Source: Anaeromyxobacter sp.
GTDB lineage: Bacteria > Myxococcota > Myxococcia > Myxococcales > Anaeromyxobacteraceae
Length of the DNA: 64,000 bases
Direction: 5' to 3'
Assembly: GCA_049840735.1 (NCBI GenBank)
Contig: JASGJN010000023.1
Span: 32,001-96,000, forward strand
Below the pieces are notes generated by a model. The model did no database searches. It was not told the origin of the DNA and saw only the letters and a program-made list of their open reading frames with translations. A program made the translations under genes and the position numbers. Every line of letters starts with the position of its first letter. The stretch's first letter is position 1. Shown piece by piece: positions 7,127 to 63,724 of this stretch.

Positions 7127-7562
7127 CTACGCCGCGGCCGCGGCCGCGGTCACCACCAGCTCGACCGGCACGTTGCCGCGGATGGCGTTGGAGTATGGGC
7201 AGATGGCGTGGGCGGCGGCCACCAGCGCCTCCGCCTCGGCGCGGGGCAGCCCGGCGATCCCGACCGAGAGCTTCACCGAGAGCGCGAAGCCGCCCTGGCC
7301 GCTGGGGCCGATCGCGACGCTGGCGTCGACCCGGGTGCCCTCGAGCTTCTGCTTCCGCTGCCCTGCCACGAAGGCCAGCGCGGAGTCGAAGCAGGCCGCG
7401 TAGCCGGCCGCGAAGAGCTGCTCGGGGTTGGTGAGCGGGAAGCCGGGGCCGCCCAGCTCGCGGGGGATGGCCAGCTCCAGAATCGAGCACCTGGTCGGAC
7501 GAGGTGACGTGGCCGTTGCGGCCGCCGGTGGCGGTGGCGTGGGCGGTGTACAGGGTCTTCAT
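7127..7562 (-). CDS. ohr: Organic hydroperoxide resistance protein Ohr (apparent +1 frameshift at ~7481)
   Basis: MKTLYTAHATATGGRNG in one frame; NPEQLFAAGYAACF and ICPYSNAIRGN in the next; removing one base at GAATCG (7480-7485) joins them as VLDLELAIPRELGG. Confidence 0.9.
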
Positions 7563-7581
7563 GGCGGATGTTCCTTGGTGA

Positions 7582-7628
7582 GCGATTAAAGCGCGTGCGA
7601 TCTAATCGCGTACGGAGACATCTGTCAA
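7582..7628 (-). promoter_or_regulatory. ohr promoter (-35 TTGACA) overlapped by tandem OhrR-box-like inverted repeats
   Basis: Minus-strand TTGACA at 7628-7623; GCGATT-A-AAGCGC (7582-7594) and GCGATC-T-AATCGC (7597-7609) cover the -10 region just upstream of ohr. Confidence 0.65.
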
Positions 7629-7800
7629 GCGGTGGCCCGGTCCCGGTGAGCAGCAGGAACCGGGCGCGGGCAGACATGGGGGCTTGCGCCGAGTCCGGCG
7701 GGTTCCCTGCGACCATCACCTCATGGGGGCTCGGCAGCCCTCGGCTCGAAGGACGCGAGCGAACCCGCAGGGTCGCCCCGTCAGCCGCACGCGCCGTCCC

Positions 7801-8970
7801 TCAGACCGCCAGCTCGTACACGCGCCGCACGCCCTCGCTGTCGAGCTTCACGAAGTTGCCCACCGTGCGGGCGTCACCGTCGGTGCACTTGCGGGCCATC
7901 TCGTCCAGGCGGTCGACGCCGATGTCGAGGCCGGAGAGCCGGGTGGCGAGGCCGAGCGAGTGGTACCAGGCCTCCAGGCGCGCGATGCCGGCGCGGCCGG
8001 TGGCCTCGGCGTCCCAGTGCTCGTTGTCCACGTTCCACACCCGCACCGCCCACTGCGCGAACCGCTGCGGGTCGGTGGAGAGGGTGTGCTTGAGCCAGGC
8101 CGGGAAGACCACCGCCAGCCCCGCGCCGTGGGCCACGTCGTAGATGCCGGACAGCTCGTGCTCGATGTCGTGGGAGGCCCAGTCACCCACCCGGCCGGTG
8201 TTGAGCAGGTTGTTGTGGGCGATGGTGCCGGCCCACATGAACTCCGACCAGGCGTCGTAGTCGCGCGGGCGCGCCATGAGCTCCACCGCCTTGCGCGCCA
8301 CGGTCTTCATGGTCGCCTCCAGCAGCCGGTCGGTGAACTCGACGTGCCGCACGGTGGTGAAGTACCGCTCCATCAGGTGGGCCATGATGTCGGCGGCGCC
8401 GCAGGCCACCTGGAAGGGCGGCAGGGTGAAGGCCAGCTGCGGGTCCAGGATGGAGAAGCGCGGGTAGAGCAGCTCGGAGTTGACCGCGCGCTTGAGCTGC
8501 CCCTCCTCCTTCGTGATCACCGTGCCGGTGCTGGACTCGCTGCCGGCGGCCGGGATGGTGAGCACGGTGCCGATGGGGAGCGCGGCCTTCGGCGCGCCCT
8601 TGCCCAGGTAGAAGTCCCAGACGTCGCCGTCGATCGCCGCCCCCATGGCGATGGCCTTGGCAGAGTCGATGACGCTGCCGCCGCCGACGGCCAGCACGAA
8701 GCCGAGCCCGTGCGCCTTGCACAGCCGCACGCCCTCGTGCACCAGGGAGAGCCGCGGGTTGGGCAGCACGCCGCCCAGCTCGACCGGCTCCACCCCGGCG
8801 GCGCGCAGCGAGGCCACCACCCGGTCGTAGAGCCCGGAGCGCTTGATGCTGCCGCCGCCGTAGTGCAGGAGCACCTTGCGGCCGTGCTGCGCGGTCAGCT
8901 CGCCCACGCGGGCGTCGGCGCCCCGGCCGAAGACGATGCGGGTCGGATTGCAGAACTCGAAGTCGTTCAT
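7801..8970 (-). CDS. Iron-containing alcohol dehydrogenase (BdhA/YqhD-like butanol dehydrogenase)
   Basis: NPTRIVFG, YGGGSIKRSG, AVGGGSVIDSAK, TIPAAGSE, WASHDIEHELS, HGAGLA. Confidence 0.93.
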   Translation of the reverse strand: MNDFEFCNPTRIVFGRGADARVGELTAQHGRKVLLHYGGGSIKRSGLYDRVVASLRAAGVEPVELGGVLPNPRLSLVHEGVRLCKAHGLGFVLAVGGGSVIDSAKAIAMGAAIDGDVWDFYLGKGAPKAALPIGTVLTIPAAGSESSTGTVITKEEGQLKRAVNSELLYPRFSILDPQLAFTLPPFQVACGAADIMAHLMERYFTTVRHVEFTDRLLEATMKTVARKAVELMARPRDYDAWSEFMWAGTIAHNNLLNTGRVGDWASHDIEHELSGIYDVAHGAGLAVVFPAWLKHTLSTDPQRFAQWAVRVWNVDNEHWDAEATGRAGIARLEAWYHSLGLATRLSGLDIGVDRLDEMARKCTDGDARTVGNFVKLDSEGVRRVYELAV

Positions 8971-9091
8971 GTGCGGTCTCCGGGGTCCGCGCGGGGGCGG
9001 GCGTGAGGCGGGGCGTGACGTGGCCCCGCAGCATACCACCGGGGCGTGAGGGCGCTGGGGCAAACGTTGGCGCGAGCTGGGCCCCGGCCGC

Positions 9092-10876
9092 TCAGGGCGC
9101 GGCGGCCCGGGCCAGCGCCTCGCGCAGCTCGGCCACCGAGTAGGGCTTCTGCAGGAAGCCGGCGAAGCGCCCGCCGCGCTCGCGCCCCAGCGACGACTGC
9201 TCGTCGAAGCCGCTGGAGAGGATCACGCGCAGGCCGGGGGCGATGGCCAGCAGCGCGTCCAGCGTGGCCAGCCCGTCCATGCCCGGCATGGAGAGGTCGA
9301 GCAGCACCAGCCGCACCTCGCCAGGGCGGGCCCGGATCAGCGCCACCGCCTCCTGGCCGCCGGAGGCCGCGAGCACCGGCATGCCCAGCCGCCGCACCAT
9401 CGACTCGGCGGCACGCCGCACCAGCTCCTCGTCGTCCACCACCAGCACGGTCCCGGCGGCCGGCGGCGGACGGAGCGGCGCGGGGGTGAGGTGGGGCGCC
9501 GCCTCGGCGGGCGCGGTCGCGCCGGGCCGCACCGGAAAGAGCACCTTCACCCGGGTGCCGCGCCCGGGCGTGCTGTCCACGAACAGCGCGCCGCCGTGGC
9601 CGCGAACGATGCCCAGCAGCGCGGGCATGCCCAGCCCGCGCCCCACCGCCTTGGTGCTGAAGAACGGATCGAAGATCCGCGCCAGCGTGGCCTGGTCCAT
9701 GCCGCAGCCGTCGTCGGCGACCTCCAGCGCGACGTACGCCTCGGCCGGCCGCGCGTCGGCGACGCGGTTCCCCTCCAGCGCCCCGGGGCCGCCGGCCCGG
9801 CGCCCGGTGGTGATGGTGATGGTGCCGGGGCGCGCGCCGATGGCGTCGGCGGCGTTGGTGATGAGGTTCATCACCACCTGCTGGAGCTGCCCGACGTCCG
9901 CCTCGATGGGCGGGAGCCCCTCCGCCAGGTGCACGGCGATGGCGCAGGTGTGCGGGACGCTGGCCCGCAGCATGTGGGCGTTCTCCCGGACCAGCGCGCC
10001 CAGCTCCAGCGGGCGCACCACGAACCGGCCCTTGCCGGAGTAGGCCAGCAGCTGCCGGGTCAGGTCGGTGGCCCGCCGCGCCGCCCGCACCGCCTGCCGC
10101 AGCGGCTCGCGCGCCGGCGCGTCGGGCGTGAGGTCGCCCATGGCCAGGTCGAGGTTGCCCTGCATGGCCTGGAGCAGGTTGTTGAAGTCGTGGGCCACGC
10201 CGCCGGCCAGGATGCCCAGGCTCTCCAGCTTCTGCGCGTGGAGCAGCCGCCGCTCCAGCTCCAGCCGCTCGGCGTCGGCGCGGCGCGCCTCCTCGGCGGA
10301 GCGCTCCAGCGCCAGCGCCTGCGCGCGGCTGGCCTGGAAGAGCCGGGCGTTCTCGGTCGCCAGCGCCGCCAGGTTGGCCAGCGTCCGGCAGAGGTCCACC
10401 TCGTCCGGCCCGAGGGCGCGCGGCTCGATGGGCTCCGAGACGATCAGCACCCCCACCGCCTTGTCGCCGGCGAGCATGGGGCAGTAGAGGATGGTGCGGA
10501 GGTGGCGCTGGTCGGCGACGGCCCGCTCGGCCTCGGTCCACGCCTCGGCCTCGACGTCCGGCACCAGCAGCGGCGCGCGGGCCTGGAGCGACCGGCCGAC
10601 GTGCGGGTGGTCGGCCAGCGGCGCGACGCGGAGCTGGTCCGGGAAGCCCGGCGGCAGCGGCGGCGTGGTGGCCTCCAGCCGCAGCGTGGCGCCGTCGAGC
10701 AGGTAGACCGCGGCCGTGTCGAAGCCGGCCAGGCGGCACACGCCGTCGGTGGTGTGCTGGAGGATGCGGTCCAGCTCGAGCGTGGCGGCCAGCGCGCCGC
10801 TCACGTCCACCAGCGCGGCCAGGCCGGCTGCGCGCCGCTCCAGCGCCGAGAGGCTCTCCTGCCTGGCCTCGATCAT
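9092..10876 (-). CDS. Hybrid sensor histidine kinase (GAF-HisKA-HATPase-REC)
   Basis: GAF region; [14 protein letters not shown]-box; NLITNA, DDGCGM, FDPFFSTK; receiver VLVVDDE...LLDLSMPGMDG...KPY. Confidence 0.92.
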   Translation of the reverse strand: MIEARQESLSALERRAAGLAALVDVSGALAATLELDRILQHTTDGVCRLAGFDTAAVYLLDGATLRLEATTPPLPPGFPDQLRVAPLADHPHVGRSLQARAPLLVPDVEAEAWTEAERAVADQRHLRTILYCPMLAGDKAVGVLIVSEPIEPRALGPDEVDLCRTLANLAALATENARLFQASRAQALALERSAEEARRADAERLELERRLLHAQKLESLGILAGGVAHDFNNLLQAMQGNLDLAMGDLTPDAPAREPLRQAVRAARRATDLTRQLLAYSGKGRFVVRPLELGALVRENAHMLRASVPHTCAIAVHLAEGLPPIEADVGQLQQVVMNLITNAADAIGARPGTITITTGRRAGGPGALEGNRVADARPAEAYVALEVADDGCGMDQATLARIFDPFFSTKAVGRGLGMPALLGIVRGHGGALFVDSTPGRGTRVKVLFPVRPGATAPAEAAPHLTPAPLRPPPAAGTVLVVDDEELVRRAAESMVRRLGMPVLAASGGQEAVALIRARPGEVRLVLLDLSMPGMDGLATLDALLAIAPGLRVILSSGFDEQSSLGRERGGRFAGFLQKPYSVAELREALARAAAP

Positions 10877-11126
10877 CCCCGACCCTCGCGCGCGCACGCT
10901 GGGTACGCACGCGCGGAGCCTCGCACAGGCCTCCAGGAGCGGCAAGCGAGGCGCTGGGGCGTCTCGCCATGACGGGCCTGGCGCGCCCGCGACCCGGTCC
11001 CGGCACGGCACGGAGGGGCGGGTCGCCGCGCCCAGGTGATCTGTCCTAAGCTGGATGCAGGGGTCCTCCGCCGGCCGGGCCGGCCGCTCCCCGAGCCGCC
11101 GCCAGGGCGCGAGACCAGGAGACGTC

Positions 11127-11642
11127 ATGGAGCGCAGCGAGTGGATCGGGAAGCTCGAGCTGGTGCATGACGCCCTCCGGAGCGGCGCCGCGGTCCCGGA
11201 GGCGGAGCGCGCCTGGTACCGCCGCGCGCGGCAGGAGCTGCTGGCCGCGGCCGTCGCCGAGCAGAACGCGCCGGTGATCGGCGACGAGCGCCCGCGCAAG
11301 GCGCTGCGGCTGGAGCGGGCGGTGCCGGTGCGGCTGGGCGGCGACGGGCTGGCGCTGGACTGGATGACCACCGACCTGGGCATCGGCGGGTTCGCGGTGG
11401 CGACCTCCGCCCCGCTCGACCCGGACCGCGTCACCTGGGCCGAGCTGGACCTGCCCACCGGGCGCGTCGGGGCGCGGGTGCGGGTGGTGGGCGCGGTGGC
11501 CAGCGGCCCGCGCATGCGCGTCTCGTTCGCCTTCGAGGACCCGTCGCAGGCCGCCGCCGCCGCGCTGGGCGACTACGTGCTGGACGAGCTGCTCCCGCAG
11601 ATCGTCTTCTGGGACCAGGTGCTGGAGAAGGTCCGCTACTGA
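11127..11642 (+). CDS. PilZ domain-containing protein
   Basis: RKALR (RxxxR) and DLGIGG (DxSxxG-like) motifs after an N-terminal helical segment; AGGAG RBS. Confidence 0.7.
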   Translation: MERSEWIGKLELVHDALRSGAAVPEAERAWYRRARQELLAAAVAEQNAPVIGDERPRKALRLERAVPVRLGGDGLALDWMTTDLGIGGFAVATSAPLDPDRVTWAELDLPTGRVGARVRVVGAVASGPRMRVSFAFEDPSQAAAAALGDYVLDELLPQIVFWDQVLEKVRY

Positions 11643-11807
11643 GCGCCGCCTCGACGTCCGCGCCCTCGCGACGCGGGGCCCCGGCCAGCCCGCCCTGGGG
11701 CTCTGCGACCAAGGTCCAATCGTGACCGCCAGCGGCTCGCGGTAGCGGGTCGGGGCCAGGCTGCGCGGCGCCTGCCGCTCCACCCACCCTGGCCAGGAGG
11801 CGATCAC

Positions 11808-12398
11808 ATGCGCCGCTCCCTCTCGTCCGCTCTCCGCCTGGCCGCGCTCGGCCTGGTCCTCGCCTGCGCCAGCGCCGGCGTCCCCTACAAGACGGCCGAC
11901 CTGCCGCCCCAGGCACCCCCGGCGCAGGAGGAGAACCAGGCGCTGGGCGAGGTCGTGCTGACCATGAACGGCAACGCCCGCGGCCTGGCCTGGGGGCGCT
12001 GGCGCGTGTACGGCGCCGCCGCCGACCTGACCTACGTCGGCGAGAACACCTGGGGCGGCGAGCTCCTGGGCCGGCCGGTCCGGCTCACCGTCGCCAACGG
12101 CAAGATCACCGGCGCCGGCGTGAACCTGACCCTGGAGCAGTCGGGGAGCGACGTGACGCTGGGCGGGACCGTCTTCCAGCGCACCGTCCGGATCACCTAC
12201 GCGCCCGACGCCATCCGCGGCAAGACCGCCAGCGCCGGACCGGGCTTCGAGCTGCGGCGCGAGTCTCCCGACCGCTGGGCCGGCAACTGGGGCCCCGGCA
12301 ACATGCTCTTCGTGAACATGAAGGGCGCGGCGGGCAGCTACCCGCAGAGCCTCGAGGCGCCGCAGTTCCACCTGATCATGCTGGGGCTGCTGCTGTAG
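11808..12398 (+). CDS. Putative lipoprotein
   Basis: AGGAGG RBS; signal peptide with VLAC lipobox; beta-rich body. Confidence 0.75.
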   Translation: MRRSLSSALRLAALGLVLACASAGVPYKTADLPPQAPPAQEENQALGEVVLTMNGNARGLAWGRWRVYGAAADLTYVGENTWGGELLGRPVRLTVANGKITGAGVNLTLEQSGSDVTLGGTVFQRTVRITYAPDAIRGKTASAGPGFELRRESPDRWAGNWGPGNMLFVNMKGAAGSYPQSLEAPQFHLIMLGLLL

Positions 12399-12404: not shown

Positions 12405-13519
12405 TCACCCGCCGACCAGCCCGGTGGGCGGCGCGGCCGCGGCGGCGGAGGCCGGCGCGTCCCCGGAGGCGCCCAGCTCGCCCACCCAGCTGGAGAGCAG
12501 GGTCCAGGTGACGGCCAGCAGCACCGGGCCGACGAACAGCCCCACCACGCCGAAGGCGAACAGGCCGCCGATGACGCCGGCCATGATGAGCAGGAGCGGG
12601 AGGTCGGCGCCCTTCCTGATCAGCACCGGCCGGAGCACGTTGTCGAGCAGCCCCGCCACCACCGCGAAGACCAGCAGGAGGGTCCCGCGCACCGGCGCGC
12701 CGGTGGAGAAGAGCCAGATGGCGGTGGGCGCCAGCACCAGCATCGGGCCCAGCTGCGCGATGCAGAGCACGAAGGCGACCGCCGTCAGCACGCTCGCGTG
12801 CGGCACCTGCGCCACCGCGAGCCCCACGCCGGCGAGGAGCGTCTGCGCCAGGGCGGTGACCACGATGCCGAGCGCCACGGCGCGGATGGCCTTGGCCGCC
12901 AGCACGCCCACCTTCTCGCCCTGGTCCCCCGCCAGCCGGCGCAGGAAGCGGAGCACGCCGCGCGCGGCCGCCTCGCCGGACGACCACAGGATGGCGGAGA
13001 TCACCACCGTCAGCAGCAGCTGCACCACCGCCGCGCCCAGGCCGCCGGCGCTGGCGGCGATCCAGCGGGTGGCCTCGGCCACGTGCGGCGCCAGGCGCGC
13101 GGCCAGGCCGGCCGGATCGCCGGACAGGTCGGCCCATGCGGTCGAATCCGGTTCCCGACCAGCGGCAGCCCCTCCACCCAGGCCGGCGGCGGCGGCAGCC
13201 CGTTCACCGCGACCTCGCGGGCCGCGTTGGCCACGCCGTCGATGTTCTCGGCGATGGTGGAGAGCCCCAGCCAGATGGGGGCGATCACCACGGCGGCCAG
13301 GAGCACCACCAGCGTCGCCACCGCCAGCCCGCGGCGGCCGCCGAGGCGCCGCTGCACGCCCAGCAGCATGGGCCAGGTGGCGACGGTGATCATGGTCGCC
13401 CAGACCGTGGCCGCGACGAAGGGGAGGAGCACCCAGGTGCTGGCGGCGAACAGGAGGACGATGGACGCCACGCCCAGCGTGATGCGGGCGAGATCCTGCG
13501 AAGGCGGTCGGGCGAGCAC
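12405..13519 (-). CDS. AI-2E family transporter (YdiK-like; apparent -1 frameshift at ~13145)
   Basis: N-half (QDLARITL, WATMITVATWP, PPPPAWVEGLPLVG) and C-half (AIRAVALGIVVTAL, LDNVLRPVLIRKGADLP, GLFVGPV) lie in different frames; adding C to GATTCG gives ATC TCG ACC GCA TGG; start approximate. Confidence 0.85.
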
Positions 13520-22182: not shown

Positions 22183-22608
22183 ATGTGGACCGTCGCGCCG
22201 CGCACCCTGGGGCAGGCCCTCGCCGCCGACGCGCTCTACCTGGCGGCGGTGGGGCTGTTCCTGGGCCTGCAGCGGCTGGGGCTGCGCCTGCGCCGCGAGG
22301 AGCACCAGGCCTGGTGGGCCGGCACCGGCCGCGACCTGCTCAACGTGGCCGGGCTGCTGGCCATCGGCGGCGCGTTGCACCTGCTGGGCCTGTCCTGGCC
22401 GGCCGCGCTGCTGGTGGGCGGAACGCAGACGCTGCTGCTGTTCGGGGTGGCGGTGTTCCTGGCCACGCAGACCAGCACGCGCCATCCGCTGGTCTGGTCG
22501 CTCCTGGCCGGGCTGCTCCTGTCGGTGCCGGTGCTGGGCTGGCGCGAGGAGGTGGTGGCCGGGTTCGGCGGGGTGGCGCTGGCGCTGTTCGGGGCGGCGG
22601 GGGGGTGA
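22183..22608 (+). CDS. Small integral membrane hypothetical protein
   Basis: About 4 hydrophobic segments, GC3 bias; start uncertain. Confidence 0.65.
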   Translation: MWTVAPRTLGQALAADALYLAAVGLFLGLQRLGLRLRREEHQAWWAGTGRDLLNVAGLLAIGGALHLLGLSWPAALLVGGTQTLLLFGVAVFLATQTSTRHPLVWSLLAGLLLSVPVLGWREEVVAGFGGVALALFGAAGG

Positions 22609-22623
22609 GCCGGGTCCATCCCT

Positions 22624-22673
22624 GGGCTTCGACTCCGCGAGCCCTGTGGGCTCGCTACGCTCAGCCCGAACGG
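22624..22673 (+). repeat. Structured REP-like element, copy 1
   Basis: GGGC-TTCGACTCC-GCGAGCCC-TGT-GGGCTCGC-TACGCTCA-GCCC-GAACGG. Confidence 0.85.
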
Positions 22674-33993: not shown

Positions 33994-35169
33994 TCAGCGC
34001 AGGCAACCAGCGGAGGGCGGGCCATGGGCAACGAGCGCGGAGCGGGCTGGCTCTCGGCCGACTCGGTCACCATCGGCGTGGCGCTGCTGATCCTGATCGC
34101 GATCGTGATCTGAGCGATCGCCTCCTGGGCTTCGACTGCGCGAGCCCTGCGGGCTCGCTACGCTCAGCCCGAACGGATCCGTGCCGGTTCGCTGGAGCGG
34201 ATTCCGGGTCCGTGTGCCGGGGCGGACAGCGGCCCGTTCGCCCTGAGCGTAGCCGCGGCAGCGCCGCGGCGGAGTCGAAGGGCAGGGATTCGACTTCCCC
34301 CAGAACGACCCTGCGCCGTGGGTGTCCTTGCGCAGGTCCATGCCGGGGTCGAGCTTCACGAACGAGCACATCTCGTTGAGCCGCGAGTAGATGCGGTCGC
34401 CCACGCGCTGGGCCAGCGTCATCGACTCGGCCTCGCGCTGGAACTCGGGCGAGCGCGTGTTCACCGAACGTCCAGGCTGCTCGGGGCGGACGGTGGGCTC
34501 GAGGAAGTAGTTGGTGGCGAAGAGCGTGGCCAGCCCGGAGTTGAAGCGCCGGCTGATCAGCTCGTCGAGCATGGAGCGCTCCCACTCGGTGCCGCGCTCC
34601 TTGCCCAGCTCGTCGATGGCCAGCACCGGGACCGACAAGAGCGGCCGCAGGATGTCCATGTGGCTGCGGTTGGCGTCGAAGCCGGCCTTGATCTCCGAGA
34701 GCAGCAGCATGAACTCGACGTACCGGCCGGCCACGCCCTTCTCCAGGGCCAGCCAGCGGAGCGAGGCCACCAGCAGGTGGGTCTTGCCGGCGCCGGGCTT
34801 GCCGTAGAGCAGGAAGCCCTTGGTGGGCGCGTCCTTGCGGAACTTCCGGGCGAAGTCCTCGGCCACCATCTTGGCGCGGGTGTGGTCGGGCGACCAGCCC
34901 TTGAAGGTCTCGAAGGAGGCGCGGGCCACCGCGGCCGGGATGCCGATCTGGTTGAAGACGGCGATGCGCTCGTCGAGGTGCCGGCAGGAGCAGACCTGCG
35001 CCACCATGGCGCCGCCGGACGGGACCAGCGTGTAGCCGGTCTCGCCGCAGCGCGGGCAGGCGGCCTGACAGGCGCAGCGCCGGGCGCGGGCGGTCGCGCC
35101 GAGCACCTGCTCGACGGCGTAGCCGCTGCCGCCGCACTCGGCGCAGGCGCTGTCGGGGGTCGGGCTCAT
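33994..35169 (-). CDS. DnaC/DnaI/IstB-like AAA+ ATPase with N-terminal Cys-rich Zn-binding region (true end probably ~34290)
   Basis: CAECGGSG..CAC, CPRCGETG..CSC; GKPGAGKTHL; LAIDELG; RFN..TLFATN; RIYSRLNEMC; tail after FWGK runs through repeats. Confidence 0.85.
   Translation of the reverse strand: MSPTPDSACAECGGSGYAVEQVLGATARARRCACQAACPRCGETGYTLVPSGGAMVAQVCSCRHLDERIAVFNQIGIPAAVARASFETFKGWSPDHTRAKMVAEDFARKFRKDAPTKGFLLYGKPGAGKTHLLVASLRWLALEKGVAGRYVEFMLLLSEIKAGFDANRSHMDILRPLLSVPVLAIDELGKERGTEWERSMLDELISRRFNSGLATLFATNYFLEPTVRPEQPGRSVNTRSPEFQREAESMTLAQRVGDRIYSRLNEMCSFVKLDPGMDLRKDTHGAGSFWGKSNPCPSTPPRRCRGYAQGERAAVRPGTRTRNPLQRTGTDPFGLSVASPQGSRSRSPGGDRSDHDRDQDQQRHADGDRVGREPARSALVAHGPPSAGCLR
34024..34113 (+). 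CDS. Unannotated 29-aa membrane peptide MGNERGAGWLSADSVTIGVALLILIAIVI
   Basis: GGAGG RBS 8 nt upstream; nearly all codons end in G/C; one hydrophobic helix; below the ORF-track cutoff. Confidence 0.6.
   Translation: MGNERGAGWLSADSVTIGVALLILIAIVI
34127..34282. repeat. Inverted pair of structured REP-like elements (copies 3-4)
   Basis: 34127-34176 forward, 34234-34282 reverse; tails CGAACGG/CCGTTCG face each other. Confidence 0.85.
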
Positions 35170-37880: not shown

Positions 37881-38718
37881 TTGGGCGCACTCGACCCCAA
37901 GAACCGCAGCAACCTGGCGCTCCGCGTCGTCTCCGGCCTGGTGCTCTTCCCGCTGGCCGTCTGGCTGACGATTCGAGGGCGGGCTGCCCTTCGCCATTCT
38001 GGCCGGCGTGGCCGGCGCCATCGCCGCCAGCGAGCTCATCCTCATGTTCAGCGCGCCCGGGCCGGGCGAGGTGCTGGGCGTCGGGGTGGCCGGGGCCATC
38101 CCGCTGGTGGCGGCCTTCGCCGAGCGCGGCGTGCTCCTGCCGGGCTGGGCGCCGCTGGCGCTGGCCTGCGCCACGGTGGTGCTGCTGGGGGTGGTGCTCT
38201 TCCGCGACGCGCCGCTGGAGCAGGCGCCGCGCTCCATCGCCGGCGTGTCGCTGGCGTGGCTCTACTGCGGCCTCCTGCTGGCCACGCTGGTGGGGCTGCG
38301 CTCCTACGGCGTGGGCTGGGTGATCCTGGCCTTCGTGGCCACCTGGGCCAACGACACCTTCGCCTACTTCGCCGGCCACGCCTTCGGCCGCCACAAGCTG
38401 TTCGAGCGCATCTCGCCCAAGAAGACCTGGGAGGGCTTCGCGGGCGGCGCGGCCGGCTCGGTGGTGGGCGCGCTGGTGACGCGGCTGCTCTTCCCGGAGC
38501 TGGCGGTCATCTCGGTGCCGGCGGCGGTGGTGATCGGCGCCGGCGCGGCGGTGCTCGGCCCCATGGGCGACCTGGCCGAGTCGATGGTGAAGCGCGCGGC
38601 GGGCGTGAAGGACTCCGGCAAGATCATCCCCGGCCACGGCGGCCTGCTGGACCGGATCGACGCGCTGCTCTTCGTCTCGCCCTGGGTCTACCTCTGCGCT
38701 GCCCACCTGGCCCGCTGA
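37881..38718 (+). CDS. cdsA: Phosphatidate cytidylyltransferase (apparent +1 frameshift at ~37972)
   Basis: NLALRVVSG N-terminus in one frame; WANDTFAYFAG, ISPKKTWEG, KDSGKIIPGHGGLLDRID in another; GATTCGAG->GATCGAG restores a continuous frame. Confidence 0.92.
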
Positions 38719-43594: not shown

Positions 43595-44624
43595 ATGTCC
43601 CGCCCCATCTCGCTCGCCGTGCTCGGCGCCACCGGCCTGGCCGGCCGCGCCGTCCTCGAGGTCCTGGCCCAATCCGAGCTCGAATCCCAGCGAGCTGCGC
43701 CTGCTGGCCTCGTCCCGCTCCGCCGGCACCAAGGTGGAGGTGGACGGCGAGGAGCTGCCGGTGGCGGCGGTGGGGGAGGGGGCCTTCCGCGGCGCGGACG
43801 TGGCCATCTTCTGCGCGCCGCCCGAGGTGGCCCGCGCCTGGGCGCCCAAGGCCCGCGCCGAGGGCTGCCGCGTCATCGACGCCTCGATGGCCTTCCGCGA
43901 GGACGAGCACGTGCCGCTGGTGGTGCCGGCGCTCAACGGCGCCGCGCTGGACGCCGGCGCCTCGCTGGTGGCGCTGCCGGCCGGCGCGGTGGCGGCGGTG
44001 GCCACGGCCCTGGCGCCGCTCCACGCCGCCGCCGCCGTGGAGCGGGTGGCGGTCACCACGCTCGAGCCGGTGGCCTCCGCCGGCCGCGCCGCCGTGGATC
44101 AGCTGGAGCGCGAGGTGGCCGACCTCATGAACGGGCGCGAGCCGGAGACCGGCGCCGCGCTGCCGCACCGGCTGGCCTTCAACGTGGTGCCGCAGGTGGG
44201 CACGTTCGGTCCGGACGGCCGGACCGCCGCCGAGGGCGCGCTGCCCGGCGAGCTGCGCCGGGTGCTGGGCGCGCCGGGCCTGGCCGCCTCGGCCACGGCC
44301 GTGCGCGTGCCGGTCTTCTACGGGCTGACGGCGGTGATCGGGGTCACCCTGGCCCGGCCGCTGGCGCCCGACGAGGCGCGGACGCTCTTGCGCGCCGCGC
44401 CGGGCGTGAAGGTCCTGGACGCGCCGGGGGACGGCATCTACCCCATGCCCATGCTCACCGTGAACGACGACGCCGTGCTGGTGGGGCGCGTGCGGGCCGA
44501 TCCATCCCACCCGCGCGGCCTGGAGCTGGTGCTGGTCACCGACGAGCTGCGCCAGGGCGTGGCGGTCAACGCGGTCCGGGTGGCCGAGCGGCTCTCGGAG
44601 CTGCCGGCGCTGGTGCGCGCCTGA
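43595..44624 (+). CDS. Aspartate-semialdehyde dehydrogenase-like (Usg-type) protein (apparent +1 frameshift at ~43683)
   Basis: AVLGATGLAG N-terminus; VPLVVP.LN, LAFNVVPQ, AVRVPVFYG, VGRVR; CGAATC->CGATC joins the frames; catalytic Cys and His absent. Confidence 0.85.
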
Positions 44625-51369: not shown

Positions 51370-51931
51370 GTGGCGACCTCTGACGGCAGCACCATCATCG
51401 GCGAATCGATCCTCATCAGCGGCTCCCTCAACGGCGACGAGGACCTCACGGTCCGCGGCCGCGTCGAGGGGACGCTCACCCTCACCAAGACCCTGGTGGT
51501 CGAGCCCACCGGCATCGTCAAGGCCGAGGTGCAGGTCAAGAACTGCGTCATCGCGGGCGCGGTGGTCGGCAACGTCACCGCCACCGAGTCGGTCGAGATC
51601 ACCAAGGAAGGCCGCATGGTGGGCGACATCAACGCCCCGCGGGTGATCATCGTCGACGGCGCCAGCTTCCGCGGCCGCATCGACATGGGCGAGGTGGACG
51701 TGGACCTGGAGCGGCCCGTCCGCCAGGTGGCCCGCGCCGCGCCGCCCCCGCAGGCCCGCCCGGTGGCCCGGCCCCCGGCCCGCCCGGTGATGCCGGCGCC
51801 GCGTCCGGAGCCGAAGAAGGAGGAGCGGGTCCCGGTCGCCGCCGCGGTCGGCGCCCCCAAGCCTCCGGCGCCCCCCGCGCCCGTCGCCATGGGCGCGGTG
51901 AAGCGCAAGGTGATTCGTGAAGCGCAAGTAG
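51370..51931 (+). CDS. bacP: Bactofilin with Pro-rich tail (BacP-like; apparent +1 frameshift at ~51914)
   Basis: Bactofilin domain plus Pro/Arg tail; GATTCG->GATCG gives the basic end KRKVIVKRK-TAG (51929-51931) instead of read-through to 52017. Confidence 0.85.
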
Positions 51932-52061: not shown

Positions 52062-52856
52062 ATGGACCTGGAGCCGCGCACCACGGCGCCCGCGCACGCG
52101 ACGGGCGCCGTCGAGTTCGTGCCGCTTTCTGCGATCGCGCCCGACACCACCTTCCGGCTGCGCGAAGAGGGCGACGTGGCGGCGCTGGCCGGCTCGATGG
52201 GCCGGCTGGGCCAGCTGGTCCCGGTGGAGCTGCGCCCGCTGCCCGACGCCCCCGAGGGCGGTCCCCGCTGGCAGGTGGTGGCCGGCTTCCGGCGCATGGC
52301 CGCGCTCCGCATGCTGATGCGCGGCCGGGTGCTGGCGCGCCTGCACGGCTCGCTGGGCGACGAGGACGCCTGGGCCATCGCCCTGGCGCAGCCGCTCCTG
52401 GCCGAGCCGCTGGACGGCGAGGCGCTGGAGGCGCTCCGGGCGCGGCTGGCCGCGGAGAACCTGGCGCCCTGGGCCGACGAGCTGGTGGACGAGGCGCTGG
52501 TCCGGGCCCCGGTGCCGGCGGCCGTGCGCGAGCGGTTCTTCGCGTATCTGAAGCGCGAGCCGGCTGCGGCGGAGGCTGAGGAGGCGGAGGCCGCCGAGGC
52601 CGCGCCCGAGGAGCAGCCTGCGGAGGAGCCCGCGGCGGAGGAGCCGGGGGAGCCCGAGGAGGCCGGGGACGTCGAGATGACCCCGGAGGAGCTGGCGGAG
52701 GACCTCTCCGCGCGGCTCTATGAGGTGAACGCGGATCTGGCCGTGGCGGCCGACGCCTGGGCGGAGCTCCCGCCCGAGGGTCGCCGGGCCATCCTGGAGC
52801 AGCTGCGCTGGATCGCCGGGCTGGCGGCCTGGGCGGAATCGGAGGAAGAGGGATGA
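52062..52856 (+). CDS. ParB/Srx-domain protein (PadC-like) with acidic linker
   Basis: FRLR...LAGSM.RLGQLVPV..R..WQVVAGFRR; directly downstream of the bactofilins. Confidence 0.8.
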   Translation: MDLEPRTTAPAHATGAVEFVPLSAIAPDTTFRLREEGDVAALAGSMGRLGQLVPVELRPLPDAPEGGPRWQVVAGFRRMAALRMLMRGRVLARLHGSLGDEDAWAIALAQPLLAEPLDGEALEALRARLAAENLAPWADELVDEALVRAPVPAAVRERFFAYLKREPAAAEAEEAEAAEAAPEEQPAEEPAAEEPGEPEEAGDVEMTPEELAEDLSARLYEVNADLAVAADAWAELPPEGRRAILEQLRWIAGLAAWAESEEEG

Positions 52857-53453
52857 CGGATTGGTCGGGGGCAGATCGGGCGCGGCTGCTGGACCTCCTG
52901 CGGTTGCTCTCCTTCGAGCGGCGCAAGGTGGTGCTGGCCTCGGGGCGCGAGAGCGACTTCTACATCGACTGCAAGCGCACCGCGCTCACCGCCGAGGGGC
53001 ACGTGCTCGTCGGCCGGCTGCTGCTGGAGCAGGTGCGCCAGCTCCCGCCGCCGGTGCGCGGCGTGGGCGGCCTCACGCTGGGCGCCGACCCCATCGCCAG
53101 CGCCGTGGCCACGGCCAGCTTCCTCGAGGTGGAGCGCGCGCGCGCCGCCGGGCAGGCCGAGCCGGCCGTCCACGACGCGTTCATCGTCCGCAAGGAGCCC
53201 AAGGGCCACGGCACCGGCCAGTGGATTCGAGGGGCGCAAGACCATCCCCGACGGCAGCCGGGTGGTGATCATCGAGGACGTGGTGACCACCGGCGGCAGC
53301 GCGCTCAAGGCCATCGCCCGCTGCCGCGAGGAGCAGCTGGTCCCGGTCGCCTGCCTGGCGCTGGTGGACCGCCTGGAGGGCGGGCGCGAGGCCATCGAGG
53401 CCGAGGGCGTGCCGCTCCACCCGCTCTTCACGCGGAAGGACTTCCTCCCGTGA
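52853..53453 (+). CDS. pyrE: Orotate phosphoribosyltransferase (apparent +1 frameshift at ~53226)
   Basis: LASGRESDFYIDCK, GGLTLGADP, VRKEPKGHG in one frame; IIEDVVTTGGS, LVDR in the next; GATTCGAG->GATCGAG gives WIEG. Confidence 0.93.
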
Positions 53454-58389: not shown

Positions 58390-58464
58390 GCGGGAATAGC
58401 TCAGCGGTAGAGCATCGCCTTGCCAAGGCGAGGGTCGACGGTTCAAATCCGTTTTCCCGCTCCA
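58390..58464 (+). tRNA. tRNA-Gly (GCC)
   Basis: Full cloverleaf GCGGGAA/TTCCCGC; anticodon loop TTGCCAA; GTTCAAATC T-loop; encoded CCA. Confidence 0.98.
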
Positions 58465-58685: not shown

Positions 58686-58967
58686 CTCTTCCGCTGCTCG
58701 GGTGCGTTCGCCATCCGCCTGTCTCTGCAAGAGGGTTTCAGCCTCGGCTGAAAGGCTGGCGGGGCGTCTCCGCAATGTCTCCGCGCGCTCGACCGTCCGG
58801 CTGCCGGATGCCCACGGTCTGGGTGACCTCGCGCTACTCCCCGAGCGAGGTCAGCCGCTCGACCGCGTAGTTGCCGTGACCCTCCCTGCGCATGTCCATC
58901 GACTCGTCGCGGCACTCGCCGCAGCGCTAGCGCACAGTGCGTAGCGCTCGAGGACGAGCATCTTGCT

Positions 58968-59166
58968 TCACGACCGCTTCTTCCGACGCCGAGTCGCGGT
59001 CACCTCCTCTGCCGCCTCCCGCTTGCGGTAGCTCTCGCCCTCAATGCTGATGCATCCGCTCGTGGAAGCGGATGTGATCGCCGGCCCGCTCCAGGACGAC
59101 GCTCTTCAGGCTGTCGTAGAGGATCGCCCTCGGTAAGCCGCCGAGCGCGTTGAACCCTTCGGCCAT
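58968..59166 (-). pseudogene. IS21 relic: istA DDE-core fragment joined to the istB 3' end
   Basis: 59166-59053 reads [33 protein letters not shown] (IstA-like); 59051-58968 reads [13 protein letters not shown]...* (IstB C-terminus). Confidence 0.75.
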
Positions 59167-59214
59167 CTCCCACGGTGGGCCGGCTTGGGTTCGTTCGTCT
59201 CTGAACGGCTCGCT

Positions 59215-59724
59215 TCAGAAGGGGTCGTCGCCTTCCGGGAACCGACGTAGAACCCGGTCCACATCCTTCGCCACCTCCTCTGTGGAGGGGAGGTCGAATG
59301 CAGGCGGGACGGGGCTGACCAGGCGAAACCCAAGGGCCGCCCAGTCCGCGAAGCTCGGCGCCTGAACGAGGAACTCGTCTCGATCGAGTGCGCCGAAGCC
59401 CACGCGAACCACCGGCCAGCGCTCCGGTTCGGGAGCGGCGGACATGTCCAGCACGATGGCGTCGTCACCGCCGTCCGATCCTACGGCAAAGGTCTCAGGG
59501 AGCCAGCGCTGGATGCCGTATCCGGCATTCGACCCTGGTACCTCGGTGGCGGACCAGAGGCGCAAGCGATCGCCGCCCAGGTCGTGCACGCCTCGCTCTG
59601 CGCCGTCCGTTTCCAGCAGGAACTCGAGGTATCGGGGCGGCAAGTCTCTCCCGAGCCAGCGCCTGAGGTCTGCGATGGCCGCTTCGGTGGCCGGCGGGCG
59701 CTGAACCTGAAAATGTTCCTTCAC
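59215..59724 (-). CDS. SMI1/KNR4 (SUKH) family protein
   Basis: PPATEAAIADL...LPPRYLEFLLETDG, VGSDGG..IVLD, SFADW; AGGAGGAGG RBS; weaker GC3 bias. Confidence 0.8.
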   Translation of the reverse strand: MKEHFQVQRPPATEAAIADLRRWLGRDLPPRYLEFLLETDGAERGVHDLGGDRLRLWSATEVPGSNAGYGIQRWLPETFAVGSDGGDDAIVLDMSAAPEPERWPVVRVGFGALDRDEFLVQAPSFADWAALGFRLVSPVPPAFDLPSTEEVAKDVDRVLRRFPEGDDPF

Positions 59725-59778
59725 GGCGCACCTCCTCCTGCGCTTCTACCCGGACCTGGTCGAGGCGGCCAGCGCAGC

Positions 59779-61245
59779 TCAGTCGCCGCGCTCGCCGTCA
59801 CCGGGCAGCGGCGCGCGCCGCGCCAGCACCCGCTCCACCTCCCGCGCCAGCTCCGCCACGGAGGTGCCGGGGGCCTCGGGGTGGCGCCGGATCCTGGCGA
59901 AGACCCGCTCCAGGCGCTCGACGGTGGCGTCGTCGCGCCGCTCGGGCTCGGGGGCGGCGGCCGCGACCACGTCGGCGCCTCGCCGCGCGTGCGAACGCGC
60001 CGCGACGGCGGCGTGGTGCAGGGCGGCGCGCTCCAGCAGCACCCAGGGGAAGCTGGCCCCGTCGTGCGGTCCGATGACGAGGCGGGTGGTGCGCGAGGAG
60101 GTGAAGAGCGCGTCGAGGGCCCGCCGCATCGAGGCGACGGGGCCGGCCTCGTGGGCGCGGAGCCGCCGCCGGGAGAGGTTCCAGGCGGCGGCGCCGGCCC
60201 CCACCGCGGCGCCGATGGCGGCGCCTGCGCCCAGGCTCGCGCCGCCCGTCGCCGCGTCGGCGGCGAGGCCGGTGGCGGCGCCCGCCATGGCCGCGGCCAC
60301 CACCTGCTGCCGCGGCGAGAGGCCCAGCGTCGTCCAGGTGTCCTCGGCGAACAGATCCCGCAGCCAGACCGGCGCCGCGAGCGCGCCGGCCTCCACGGTC
60401 CCCGGGGCGAAGCCGTAGAGCTGCTCCACCGCTGCCCTGGCCTCGGCCTCGCGCCTGGAGAGGTGGCGGTGGAACCGCTCCTCGAGCTCGGCGCGCCGGG
60501 GCTCCAGCGGCTCGTCGCGGTCCACGCTGAGCTCCTCGGCGTGGGTGAGCTGGTCCACCAGGAGGCGCGCCACGATCGTGGCCGCCTGGGACCGGAGCGC
60601 GGACCGCCGGCGCCCCAGGGCGCGCTCCACCTCCGCGAGCGCCGGGCGCCAGGCCGGCCTGGCCAGCGCCACCGCCTCCAGCAGCGCCGCCCGCCCGGCG
60701 GGACCGGGCACGGTCAGATCGAGGGCTAGGCGGCTCGGGTACCGGTCGGCCAGCGCCGCGAGCCAGGCCGCGCAGTGATCCTCGCTGCCGCCGGCGCGAA
60801 CCACCAGCAGCACCCCGGGCGGCCCTGCCCAGGCCAGGAGGTCGGCGTCGGCGAGGTGGTTCGGGCGGAACGGACGGGAGCCGTCGACGACGTGAACCGG
60901 GCAGGCGCCAGCGGCGACGGCCTCGAGCGCGCTCCGCTCCGCGGCGAACTCCGCGCCCGCGTGAGCGGCAAGGAGATCGAGCGCCCGGGCCCGGCGCGCC
61001 TCCGGCGTGGCCAGCGCCGCGCCCATCCAGTGGAGGGCGCGCGCGGCGTCCTCCATCCCGGGCAAATCCACCACCTCCAGGAGCGGCGTCCCATCGGCGG
61101 GCAGCGGCCAGCGGCGCGGCGCGGCGGTGGTGAAGGGGGCCGCGCCGATGCCGGTCTCCGCCTGGACCAGGGCGGCGACTGCGCTCGAGGTCCCCTGGCC
61201 CGGGCGGCCCACGAACGCGAGCACGAGCGGCGCCGGCGCGTTCAC
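59779..61245 (-). CDS. GTPase/DUF3482 domain protein (degenerate Walker A)
   Basis: AFVGRPGQGTSS, TT, DLPGMEDA, VVDGSRP; C-terminal DAATGGASLGAGAAIG glycine zipper. Confidence 0.75.
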   Translation of the reverse strand: MNAPAPLVLAFVGRPGQGTSSAVAALVQAETGIGAAPFTTAAPRRWPLPADGTPLLEVVDLPGMEDAARALHWMGAALATPEARRARALDLLAAHAGAEFAAERSALEAVAAGACPVHVVDGSRPFRPNHLADADLLAWAGPPGVLLVVRAGGSEDHCAAWLAALADRYPSRLALDLTVPGPAGRAALLEAVALARPAWRPALAEVERALGRRRSALRSQAATIVARLLVDQLTHAEELSVDRDEPLEPRRAELEERFHRHLSRREAEARAAVEQLYGFAPGTVEAGALAAPVWLRDLFAEDTWTTLGLSPRQQVVAAAMAGAATGLAADAATGGASLGAGAAIGAAVGAGAAAWNLSRRRLRAHEAGPVASMRRALDALFTSSRTTRLVIGPHDGASFPWVLLERAALHHAAVAARSHARRGADVVAAAAPEPERRDDATVERLERVFARIRRHPEAPGTSVAELAREVERVLARRAPLPGDGERGD

Positions 61246-62708
61246 GGCTGGCCTCCGTCGACGGTGGGCGGGGCCGCGGCGTCGCCGGTCGGCTCCAGCC
61301 CTTCCAGCCCGAGGTAAGGGTCCTCCAGCCTGGCCAGGCGCGTGCGCCAGGCCGCCAGCTGGGCCGGGGAGGGCGGTGAGAGTGAGCCGCCCCTGGGCTC
61401 GCCGAGCAGGATCACGACCGGTGCCCTGGGCCCCATGACCTGCCGGGCTTCACGCAGGAAGCGGAGCGTGGCCGCGTCGGCGGGCTCATGGGCTTCGGCC
61501 AGGAAGACCAGCCCGGCGCGGGGAGCGCCGCCCAGGACCTCGGCCGCGCCGCCTTCCCACGCCGGTCCGCCGGCCGCGAGCACCGGCCGGGCTCCGGGCT
61601 CCGACGAGCCCCCGAGCCGCGCCTCGAGCGCCGCCTGCACGCGGCCGTCCAGGGCGGCCTCGCGCCAGCGCACCACCGTCCACCCTGCCACCTCGGCGCC
61701 GCTGCCGTCCACGGCGCCCAGGCGGCGCAGCACCGCGCGGGTCTCGGCGTCGCTGGGCGGCAGCGCGGCCAGCGCGCGGTGCCGGCGCCAGGACGCCAGG
61801 AGGAGCATGCCGGCCCGCGGCAGGAGCCCGTACACCAGGAGCGCCGCCAGGAGGAAGGGCCACCAGTCCCCGCGCAGCGCCGGCGCCAGCGCGGTGCCCT
61901 CGTAGCGGCCGTCCAGGTGCCAGTAGCGCGTGGCCTCCACCACCTGCAGCGACGGCACCGCCTCCGGGAACGCCCAGCCCCACGGCAGCGCGAGCCGCGA
62001 CACCACCGCGTGGAAGCGGGCCGGGGCGAGCGTGGAGAGCGTGGTGCTCCAGCAGAAGGCCACGTCGGTGAAGGTGATCAGGCGGAGCAGCGCCAGGGCC
62101 GCCGCGACGTTGAACGCCACTCCGAACGACTGTCCCAGCGCGAAGAGCTGCCACTGCTCCAGCCGCGCGTAGAGCCGGCGGCGCGCGCGGAGGCGCCGGC
62201 CCAGGGTCTGCCACTCGGTGAGGGCCGGGCCGCGGCGGAGGCCGAGCCTGGCGAGCCGCCGGACCAGCGAGGCGAGGAGCTCGCGGAGCGGGCCCGGCGC
62301 GGCCGACCGCGCCGGACGGGCCATCAGGGCCGCGGCCAGGGCGGTGAAGAGGAAGAGGAGCAGCTGGAGGAAGACGAAGCCGAGGAGGAAGCTCCAGACG
62401 TTGACCGGGTCCGGGCGCGAGAGCTCCACCAGCCCCGTCATCGCGCCCCAGCCGAGCGCCAGCCCGGACACCACCAGGATCAGGCGCGCCGAGCGGAGCG
62501 CAGCCTCCACGCGATCGCCGGGGTGGAGCCGGTTCGGCTCGGCCGACCGCAGCGCCGAGAGCCAGCGGCTCAACGCCTCCGCCGCCGGTAGCCCGGCGAG
62601 GCGGCCCTCGGCCGCGATCCGGGCGTCGCGCGCGGCGGCCGGGCCGCGCGGGGCGGCCTCGTCGCGGGCGAGCTGGGCTTCGAGGTCGACGAGGTCCGCG
62701 AGTCGCAT
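61242..62708 (-). CDS. DUF2868 domain membrane protein
   Basis: PVNVW..L..FVFLQ, FCWSTTL, WWPFL..LLVYGLLPR, EP..ATLRFL; GTGA overlap with the GTPase. Confidence 0.8.
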   Translation of the reverse strand: MRLADLVDLEAQLARDEAAPRGPAAARDARIAAEGRLAGLPAAEALSRWLSALRSAEPNRLHPGDRVEAALRSARLILVVSGLALGWGAMTGLVELSRPDPVNVWSFLLGFVFLQLLLFLFTALAAALMARPARSAAPGPLRELLASLVRRLARLGLRRGPALTEWQTLGRRLRARRRLYARLEQWQLFALGQSFGVAFNVAAALALLRLITFTDVAFCWSTTLSTLAPARFHAVVSRLALPWGWAFPEAVPSLQVVEATRYWHLDGRYEGTALAPALRGDWWPFLLAALLVYGLLPRAGMLLLASWRRHRALAALPPSDAETRAVLRRLGAVDGSGAEVAGWTVVRWREAALDGRVQAALEARLGGSSEPGARPVLAAGGPAWEGGAAEVLGGAPRAGLVFLAEAHEPADAATLRFLREARQVMGPRAPVVILLGEPRGGSLSPPSPAQLAAWRTRLARLEDPYLGLEGLEPTGDAAAPPTVDGGQP

Positions 62709-62916
62709 CGGGGCAAGTGGAGGAATGTCGTGAGCCTATCAGAGTGGACTTCACTGGGGGCCGGCGTTCACGCTGGGCGAGGTTGGGGGGGCGCACGGTC
62801 CCGTCCGGGCGCATCCCGGCCCGGTGCGGCACGCCTCGCCAGGGGGAGGTGCCGAGGGGCTCGCGCAGGCCTGGAACGGCGCTTCTCGGGGGAAGCAGCG
62901 CGGGCCGCCGCCTCGA

Positions 62917-63724
62917 TCACCCCACCAGCGCGGCCCTCATCGAGAGCGACGACATGTCGAACCCCTCGAATCGGGAAGCGCACCGGGTCCTCCGCGGTGC
63001 TCGCGCCGGCGACGTAGAGCAGGGGGAGGTAGTGGTCCGGCGTCGGCGCTGCCAGCCGGCCGTGCTCGGTGTCGAGGAGCCGGACGAGCTCGTCGCCGTC
63101 GTGGCGTGCGAGGGCCTGGGCGACCTCCTCGTCGAAGGCACGGGCCCAGTCCGGCGTGGCGGTCTCTCCGCGCTGCCAGGCGCCGAACGCGTGCCGGAGG
63201 TTGTGGACGAGGTTGCCGCTGCCGAGGATGAGGACGCCCTCGTCGCGCAGCGGCGCGAGCGCCCGGCCGATGGCGAGGTGCTCGCCAGGCGGGAGCCGCG
63301 CGTCGAGGCTGAGCTGCACCACCGGCAGGTCGGCGGCTGGCCGCAGGTGGACGAGCACGGACCAGGTGCCGTGGTCGAGCCCCCACTCCGCGCTGAGCGA
63401 CGCGCGCCGGCCCTCGAGGAGCCCGACGGTGCGGCGCGCGAGGGCAGGATCCCCCGGCGCCGGGTACTCGATGCGGTACAGCGCATCCGGGAACCCGCCG
63501 AAGTCGTGGATGGTCTCGGGCTGCTCGTCCCCGGTCGCGAAGGTGCCGTCTGCGTACCAGTGCGCGGAGATCGCCAGGATCGCCTTGGGGCGGGGCAGCG
63601 CGCGGCCGAGCTCGCGGAAGGCGCGGCTCCAGGCGTTGTCCTCGAGCGCGTTCATGGGGTTGCCGTGCCCCAGGAACAGGGCGGGCATGCGCTTCGTGTG
63701 CGTCGCGGTGGATGTGGTTGGCAT
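62917..63724 (-). CDS. ygiD: 4,5-DOPA extradiol dioxygenase (YgiD/LigB family; apparent +1 frameshift at ~62969)
   Basis: MPALFLGHGNPMNA, ISAHW, IHDFGGFP, WGLDHGTW, GSGNLVHNL, PTPDHYLPL; GATTCGAG->GATCGAG gives the end FPIEGFDMSSLSMRA. Confidence 0.88.

Follow-up and report, generated by a model that had tools for sequence, protein, structure and literature searches.

Why should seven genes lying within 64,000 nucleotides of one another each be broken by a single misplaced base, and each at the same word? The question is raised by a stretch of an Anaeromyxobacter genome (positions 32,001 to 96,000 of contig C23 in assembly GCA_049840735.1, hereafter G000), which we call the window and whose own numbering is used below. 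A first-pass annotation of the window had located seven single-base frameshifts, all at GAATC or GATTC—that is, at GATC with a doubled A or, on the other strand, a doubled T, together written GAWTC—and had proposed a modification at GATC that a long-read basecaller misreads. Our genome-wide analysis bears this out. We put at roughly three in four the probability that the one-base shifts are consensus errors of a native-DNA long-read assembly, likely nanopore R10, at sites that are probably adenine-methylated, and that the genes themselves are likely intact. The assembly comprises 6.67 Mb in 26 contigs, has a G+C content of ~73%, and is 94.35% complete. A protein encoded in it has named homologues in Anaeromyxobacter with an identity of 83-85%, in keeping with the genus.

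Seven genes are shifted at GAATC or GATTC

GAATC or GATTC was present at all seven coordinates, in a window that holds 21 GAWTC words and 289 GATC in total. The affected genes are:

ohr: GAATC at 7480..7484; gene 7127-7562, minus strand; one extra base, context CCAG(A)ATC
AI-2E family transporter gene: GAATC at 13144..13148; gene 12405-13519, minus strand; one missing base, presumably at this position
cdsA: GATTC at 37970..37974; gene 37881-38718, plus strand; one extra base
asd-like gene: GAATC at 43682..43686; gene 43595-44624, plus strand; one extra base
Bactofilin gene (bacP): GATTC at 51912..51916; gene 51370-51931, plus strand; one extra base near the 3' end
pyrE: GATTC at 53224..53228; gene 52853-53453, plus strand; one extra base
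ygiD/LigB-family dioxygenase gene: GAATC at 62968..62972; gene 62917-63688, minus strand; one extra base near the 3' end

Frameshifts were called with a self-trained gene model that contains frameshift states and is blind to motifs. At its most permissive penalty it placed eight shifts in the window, six of them within 8 nt of the annotated sites (at 7481, 13137, 37968, 43682, 53225 and 62971). The bacP shift was missed; this break lies only six codons from the stop. Comparison with the DNA of relatives revealed four of the shifts directly: cdsA carries an extra base relative to nine of nine relatives and bacP relative to six of six, four of which read GTGATCGTG; pyrE has an extra base as compared to relatives that read GGATCGAGG; and the alignment of the asd-like gene to its orthologue in G006, a complete relative, crosses the site only with one base removed (148 versus 114-115 bits).

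Protein matches informed the other three genes. The pieces flanking the ohr break lie in different frames and match a single protein, the 3' piece corresponding to Ohr residues 30-138 of 139; a DNA search returned ohr homologues in 0 of 36 genus genomes. The AI-2E transporter gene, which has homologues in 8 of the 36, likewise changes frame at its break; its two flanking pieces correspond to positions 6-80 and 128-326 of one Pfam family. For ygiD, with homologues in 29 of 36, the 5' piece matches residues 15-251 of 271 in E. coli YgiD; the short 3' piece gave no family match, and its frame was taken from the gene model. The annotated tally of six extra bases and one missing base hence stands, with the position of the missing base in the transporter gene not fixed by a homologue.

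Frameshifts are enriched at GATC across the genome

At a frameshift penalty of −25, which defines our stricter set, G000 carries 1091 shifts (164 per Mb), as compared to 15 in the 1.6 Mb scanned of G006 (9 per Mb). A looser penalty of −18 yielded 1310 calls, among them 985 insertions and 315 deletions. With a word counted as associated when at most 16 nt from the call, 446 of these 985 insertions fell at GAWTC against 7.6 expected. GAWTC accounts for 36-40% of all frameshift calls, versus 0.23% of random 32-nt windows in intact genes. The stricter calls divide as follows (background share in brackets; the second and third motif are described below):

GAWTC: 414 (0.23%)
Intact GATC: 225 (13.2%)
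Second motif: 99 (1.2%)
Third motif: 13 (0.8%)
GATT or AATC: 25 (0.6%)
None of these: 315 (84%)

Tabulating frameshift contexts genome-wide was one of the checks that the first-pass annotation had itself put forward, and it shows indels to be enriched at GATC. Shifts at GAWTC were seen on every contig but two small ones (24 of 26), with a frequency of 0.7-3.3 per 100 GATC. Altogether, a shift affects 1019 of the 5153 called genes. Among the 1310 looser calls, 433 had any match in a set of 1336 G006 proteins. For 245, such a protein aligned to both flanks of the break at an identity of at least 45%, and 175 of these 245 lay at a motif. Whole-genome Markov k-mer counts gave no excess of GATTC in G000 (observed/expected 1.01); the signal emerges only after frameshifts are located.

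Elsewhere in the genus, where 80-160 kb were sampled per assembly except for G006, GAWTC was found at 5 of 164 shifts in G003, 2 of 24 in G008, 2 of 67 in G011, 1 of 24 in G013 and 4 of 10 in G032. Together, these 14 sites, with ~1 expected, form a weak signature. GAWTC was absent at shifts in G006 (0/26), G009 (0/10), G033 (0/3) and G037 (0/12). Two of the sampled assemblies are dense in frameshift calls: G003:C2:300001-460000 shows ~1000 frameshift calls per Mb with other enriched words, TCGCA and GACGC, and G011 shows ~420 per Mb.

The shifts behave as consensus errors

On the coding strand, the shifted words read GAATC in 259 cases and GATTC in 187, in codon phases 0 and 2. Rates on the coding and template strands were 4.12% and 3.51% in error-prone contexts (p=0.17), and 0.40% on either strand elsewhere. 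The same context preference on both strands suggests a fault in the read-out of DNA rather than in translation or transcription. Identity to G006 orthologues was 0.696 before the break and 0.705 after it, as determined for the 87 of 94 confirmed GAWTC sites with enough alignment. No cell lives without phenylalanyl-tRNA synthetase. Nevertheless, pheS and pheT, present at one locus each, are both split at GAWTC (C20:273026 and C20:270602, respectively), as are ihfA, rplI, hprK (twice) and pyrE; these names were read from G006 proteins. metK is also hit, and intact paralogues of it are present.

Repeats within the assembly disagree with each other in the same way. Repeat pairs of at least 98.5% identity were taken from a set of 62. 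Motifs accounted for 40 of their 117 indel columns, versus a background of 10.3%, and for 46 of 240 substitutions, versus 4.4%; these columns are not independent of each other. Changes of the GATC type differed from copy to copy in ribosomal RNA-like and insertion sequence (IS) repeats. In one three-copy IS family, eight of eight internal differences lay at or beside GATC (five flagged by script, three by eye); the corresponding counts of variable columns in three other families were 3 of 11, 3 of 25 and 0 of 1. A further duplication, an 8.5-kb inverted near-duplicate (98%), was noted together with error-dense contig ends (C6:77194-98033 and C14:267781-269907); both suggest low-depth or mis-joined stretches.

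Substitutions tell a similar story. With G006, G033 and G009 as low-error comparison genomes, ATT replaced ATC after G at 310 of 14461 positions in G000 (2.14%) versus 33 of 7265 (0.45%; p=3e-25), while the control, ATT for ATC after C, gave 64/22879 versus 14/8332 (p=0.09). On the reverse complement, AAT ahead of C stood at 271/6780 (4.0%) versus 33/2584 (1.28%). GAA, CAA or AAA before ATC was raised as well (93/4546 versus 4/1806), the base rate in G000 being higher too. Taken together, strand symmetry, the split single-copy pheS and pheT, the disagreeing IS copies and the excess of C>T and G>A changes argue for consensus errors over pseudogenes or recoding, and we regard the frameshifts as almost certainly artefactual.

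Two readings that place the extra base in the cell fare poorly against these data. Were a GATC-directed mutator to have recently broken about one fifth of the genes, the differences between IS copies could be genuine, and 1019 shifted genes would be its toll. However, cdsA, pyrE, ihfA and rplI are split alongside the single-copy pheS and pheT, divergence does not increase downstream of the breaks, and the genome—large and GC-rich—is not eroding; as the first-pass annotation had held, true pseudogenes are very unlikely. Motif-directed recoding, by which the ribosome, the polymerase or an editing enzyme would skip a base at GAWTC, has nothing in its favour beyond the motif itself. Against it stand the 259 GAATC and 187 GATTC on the coding strand, their different codon phases and the context preference shared by both strands. 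Moreover, of 1073 GAWTC words in called genes, 447 sit at a +1 shift and 626 do not, the AI-2E site requires a base to be added and not skipped, orthologues lack the extra base, and the same changes come and go between copies of ribosomal RNA-like and IS repeats. We give recoding, already doubted in the first-pass annotation, next to no credence.

Plain GATC and two further motifs attract the errors

The principal motif is plain GATC, with all four flanking bases occurring. Within genes, 447 GAWTC shifts compare to 25966 intact GATC (1.7%). When the word is written with its A doubled, the two bases 5' of the G largely set the rate: 4.8% after CA, 2.2% after TC, 2.2% after GA, and 0 of 3855 after GG. 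Sites with an A next to the G on its 5' side form the largest class (251 of 447), and the context of the ohr site, CCAG(A)ATC, is the most error-prone across the genome. The longer motifs GATCG and GATCGAG suggested by the seven window sites were rejected, as the GATCGAG type makes up 73 of 447 and all flanks are seen. GANTC was rejected as the true motif, too, since orthologues carry GATC at the bacP and pyrE sites; GACTC and GAGTC did not emerge as error motifs among the shift calls.

The earlier impression that no frameshifts lie at other motifs did not carry over to the rest of the genome, where two more were found. For the second motif, GAGACCG, 62 of 217 occurrences of the word GAGAACCG coincided with a shift. 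Changing a single letter brought the rate down to 0-2%, unless the change recreated a motif error, rendering the motif specific at every position. Eight other assemblies were sampled, and one of their 314 frameshift calls fell at GAGAACCG. The third motif is AGGCCAT, with AGGCCCAT at a shift in 12 of 98 cases. Neither GAGACCG nor AGGCCAT showed a clear substitution footprint (GAA before ACCG, 15/729 versus 6/365) by which to place the modified base.

G000 has further compositional peculiarities: the palindromes GTCGAC, AGCGCT and ACCGGT are strongly under-represented (0.42, 0.50 and 0.52, respectively), and the 8-mer TACGCTCA, resembling a repetitive extragenic palindromic (REP) element, is over-represented 2.6-fold. 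None of the four surfaced as an error motif.

A solitary methyltransferase is a candidate writer of the GATC mark

G000 contains five methyltransferase-like genes, all with a D/N-PP-Y/F/W motif IV:

C16:48974-49831: beta-class methyltransferase, DPPY; PF01555, E=1e-51; in 34 of 36 genus genomes
C22:713784-715664: gamma-class-like, NPPF; in 27 of 36 genus genomes, ~70% identity
C22:211448-213107: gamma class; in 0 of 36 genus genomes with this query
C14:89395-93444: DrmMI-like or type IIG, 1349 aa; part of a defence island; full-length copies in 3 of 36 genus genomes
C13:279520-280336: D12-class adenine methylase, split across two frames; closest to PD-Lambda-5_B; in a low-GC island

The C16 gene is also found in all sampled members of some other families. 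Its product follows the beta order, with DPPY near the N-terminus and the S-adenosylmethionine-binding motif near the C-terminus; DPFSGSAT replaces DPFxGSGT, as it does in the homologue P0007. The gene is solitary: within ~1.5 kb, no DpnM-like partner or endonuclease was seen in 10 of 10 loci, the neighbours being named by our own reading. GATC is not avoided (observed/expected 0.96-1.05). A DpnII-type restriction-modification system was rejected on these two grounds.

Of the chemistries that the first-pass annotation had offered, Dnd phosphorothioation, Dpd and m5C had no genes in the 94% complete assembly. In G000, a search for the 5-methylcytosine (m5C) methylase family PF00145 gave 0 matches, with the control matched in 9 of 14 genomes; dndB, dndC and dndD were not found, although no control genome passed the DndC/DndD cut-off; and dpdA had 0 candidates. 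Two PF01507 genes of the 3'-phosphoadenosine-5'-phosphosulfate (PAPS)-reductase family proved to be cysD and cysH, not DndC or SspD. In a search for MT-A70, the controls were without a match. Adenine methylation, also on the earlier list, has a good candidate in the C16 gene and would be the likely chemistry.

The C14 gene lies in a defence island (C14:80001-99000) that further encodes a DruE-like helicase, a DpdE/DrmD-like SNF2 helicase and a weak DrmC-like gene, along with an HNH nuclease, GajA and IS elements.

Other features of the window

Of the model's calls in the window, one at 34362 is a false position, as the orthologue aligns through it unshifted. The gene concerned, an IstB-like/DnaC ATPase gene (34356-35169, minus strand), lacks the stop that ends the G006 orthologue after ...FWG and extends to 33994; a GAWTC word at 34287-34291, just beyond the lost stop, is possibly an eighth motif error. 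A weak call at 6155 falls in a G run near the 3' end of a gene that we read as MarR-like, with no supporting homologue. Two transfer RNA (tRNA) genes were also noted: tRNA-Pro(CGG) at 22558-22648, whose called length of 91 nt is unusual, and tRNA-Gly(GCC) at 58390-58464.

How a GATC mark could produce the errors

We propose that methylation of the adenine in GATC alters the nanopore signal. The caller would then write an extra A on the modified strand, turning GATC into GAATC (GATTC when viewed from the opposite strand), or else swap the G before the A, giving AATC or GATT, or lengthen or shorten a neighbouring run. Such a wrong call would win the consensus at ~2-3% of sites. The writer may be the solitary DpnA-like beta-class methyltransferase encoded on C16, an assignment that we favour moderately, and GAGACCG and AGGCCAT may be written by strain-specific enzymes, namely the C14 DrmMI-like/type IIG gene and the gamma-class gene at C22:211448-213107. 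The simplest pairing would match the shared motif with the shared gene and the two private motifs with private genes. It is supported by the GAWTC signature in five other genus assemblies; GAGAACCG was seen once among all those sampled.

Published excerpts make a minority of affected sites unsurprising: in these, a methylated motif yields assembly errors at some of its copies only (PMC12392509; bioRxiv 10.64898/2026.01.14.699587). The many intact GATC therefore do not imply partial modification, which the first-pass annotation had invoked to account for them.

Weighing the nature of the mark

Could the basecaller or polisher simply stumble over certain sequence contexts in unmodified DNA? The rate does depend strongly on flanking bases, and the modification is deduced from the errors. 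Strain-specific, non-palindromic 7-mers are, however, the typical look of methyltransferase targets, and GAGACCG is just that: specific at every position (62/217 versus 0-2% for its variants) and nearly private to G000, which possesses strain-specific methylases. We deem a plain-context weakness quite improbable, and a DNA modification very probably the cause. The more serious competitor retains the artefact and changes the chemistry, assuming a mark on the C of GATC (N4-methylcytosine (m4C) or m5C), a phosphorothioate or a bulkier base, with the caller doubling the base 5' of the mark. The rule ‘double the base before the modified C’ fits all three motifs (GATT-C, CGGTT-CTC and ATGGG-CCT), C>T at GATC would be expected from a misread methyl-C, the error load is far above the GATC figures in the available part of PMC12392509, and the assembly is 94% complete. 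Yet PF00145, dndB, dndC, dndD and dpdA were all without a match in G000, the PAPS-reductase genes are cysD and cysH, and the sole PF01555 gene, with its DPPY motif, looks like those of adenine methylases. In addition, the GATC mark of K. pneumoniae is the Dam product N6-methyladenine (m6A). The accessible text on R10.4.1 assemblies reports C-to-T and G-to-A (C2T/G2A) errors at GATC in that very species (PMC11610603). We consider another chemistry doubtful, and m6A the likely one.

Several observations weigh against adenine methylation, the C16 writer or the nanopore origin, and temper our estimate. On the chemical side, GATC is palindromic, whereby a doubled A at m6A and a doubled T before a modified C leave one footprint; A-mark and C-mark readings of GAGACCG are equally indistinguishable from an assembly; and in AGGCCAT it is the C that is doubled rather than the A (AGGCCAAT at a shift in 0 of 25), so that a C mark explains AGGCCAT/ATGGCCT no less well than an A mark does. 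Regarding the writer, the C16 protein scores 249 bits to the DpnA type versus 212 bits to CcrM, a modest margin; there is a second genus-conserved methylase-like gene, at C22:713784-715664; and in G013 (74% complete) one of 24 calls is a GAWTC site, although the C16 gene found no match there. As to the errors, 315 of the 1091 stricter calls fall outside every motif, the samples from other genus assemblies are small, and the evidence base is the G000 assembly with the sequences of relatives, from which platform and chemistry were deduced. Finally, +1 insertions dominate the visible errors here, in their hundreds, whereas the papers, as far as their available portions go, stress fewer errors and mainly substitutions; a literature search, with bioRxiv supplements outside its reach, found no paper with hundreds of GATC-to-GAATC insertions.

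With these points counted in, we lean towards the C16-type enzyme being an ordinary, Dam-like m6A writer throughout the genus. A bolder version holds that Anaeromyxobacter and several other Myxococcota families share a housekeeping GATC mark, set by the solitary DpnA-like enzyme (plus the second conserved, gamma-class gene), with m4C or a bulkier base in place of plain m6A. This is a long shot. If true, it would account for an indel load far above the figures that the consulted papers give for Dam-methylated GATC, and myxobacteria would have a global epigenetic mark that is as yet unstudied. For neither Anaeromyxobacter nor Myxococcus did a literature search, with REBASE and closed journals outside it, turn up a paper on methylation of GATC, and the six supplements of PMC4752239 make no mention of it.

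The practical consequences follow from the artefact. About one fifth of the called genes in a species-representative assembly look broken. It would be a mistake to take this for gene loss or recoding, or to see new short proteins in the fragments, and protein databases built from G000 carry truncated sequences. In turn, the errors yield a likely three-motif methylome (GATC, GAGACCG and AGGCCAT) without raw signal, and the genus-conserved solitary methyltransferase becomes a candidate Dam-like regulator.

Comparison with known systems

Among known marks, Dnd phosphorothioation has the motif G(ps)ATC. As with Dpd 7-deazaguanine, a motif-specific mark on some sites could give a like footprint; the genes of both were not found in G000. 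The closest likeness for the C16 protein is the beta-class methylase of the Lactococcus lactis plasmid pSRQ700, which we take to be the LlaDCHI plasmid. The two proteins are of similar length, 47% identical over 255 residues, and share DPPYxLSNGG, VSVxKGxWD, PNLxCRxFTHSTE and HPTQKP. Unlike the pSRQ700 enzyme, which belongs to a trio of Dam-like methylase, beta-class methylase and endonuclease, the C16 gene stands alone and is conserved in the genus. LlaDCHI is described, in the excerpt consulted, as a relative of DpnII that acts at GATC (PMC4190342), and methylases of DpnII systems are said to act on the adenine of GATC (PMC3812788, likewise in part). DpnA proper is characterized there as a single-strand methylase; that the C16 enzyme would be specific for the GATC adenine is suggested by homology and by the error motif.

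CcrM and M.HinfI, the GANTC methylases (PDB 6PBD; S. meliloti homologue), resemble the C16 protein in their beta-class fold, 44% identity and conserved solitary nature. They would differ in target, even if GAWTC, the outcome of the error, coincidentally matches GANTC; they also differ in a C-terminal part of ~100 residues in the CcrM homologue that the C16 protein lacks, and the latter scores 233 against an NCBIfam cut-off of 830.

The errors themselves find their counterpart in nanopore R10.4.1 assemblies, for which we rely on the accessible portions of the papers. There, C2T/G2A errors are enriched at GATC and lost with amplified DNA (Hammerhead, PMC11610603), and one K. pneumoniae assembly had six errors at GATC (PMC12392509); the available text of PMC8495745 and PMC11649196 is without bearing on GATC indels. 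The smallest error motif common across species is RA/TY (Lohde et al. 2024, PMC11610573), which fits both G(A)TC and GAG(A)CCG. Published and present errors are alike in their pile-up at short motifs including GATC, in their C2T/G2A changes with an ambiguous purine ahead of an A, in hitting a minority of motif copies, and in the occurrence of strain-specific beside shared motifs. The kind of artefact is already known, and G000 is one more instance of it.

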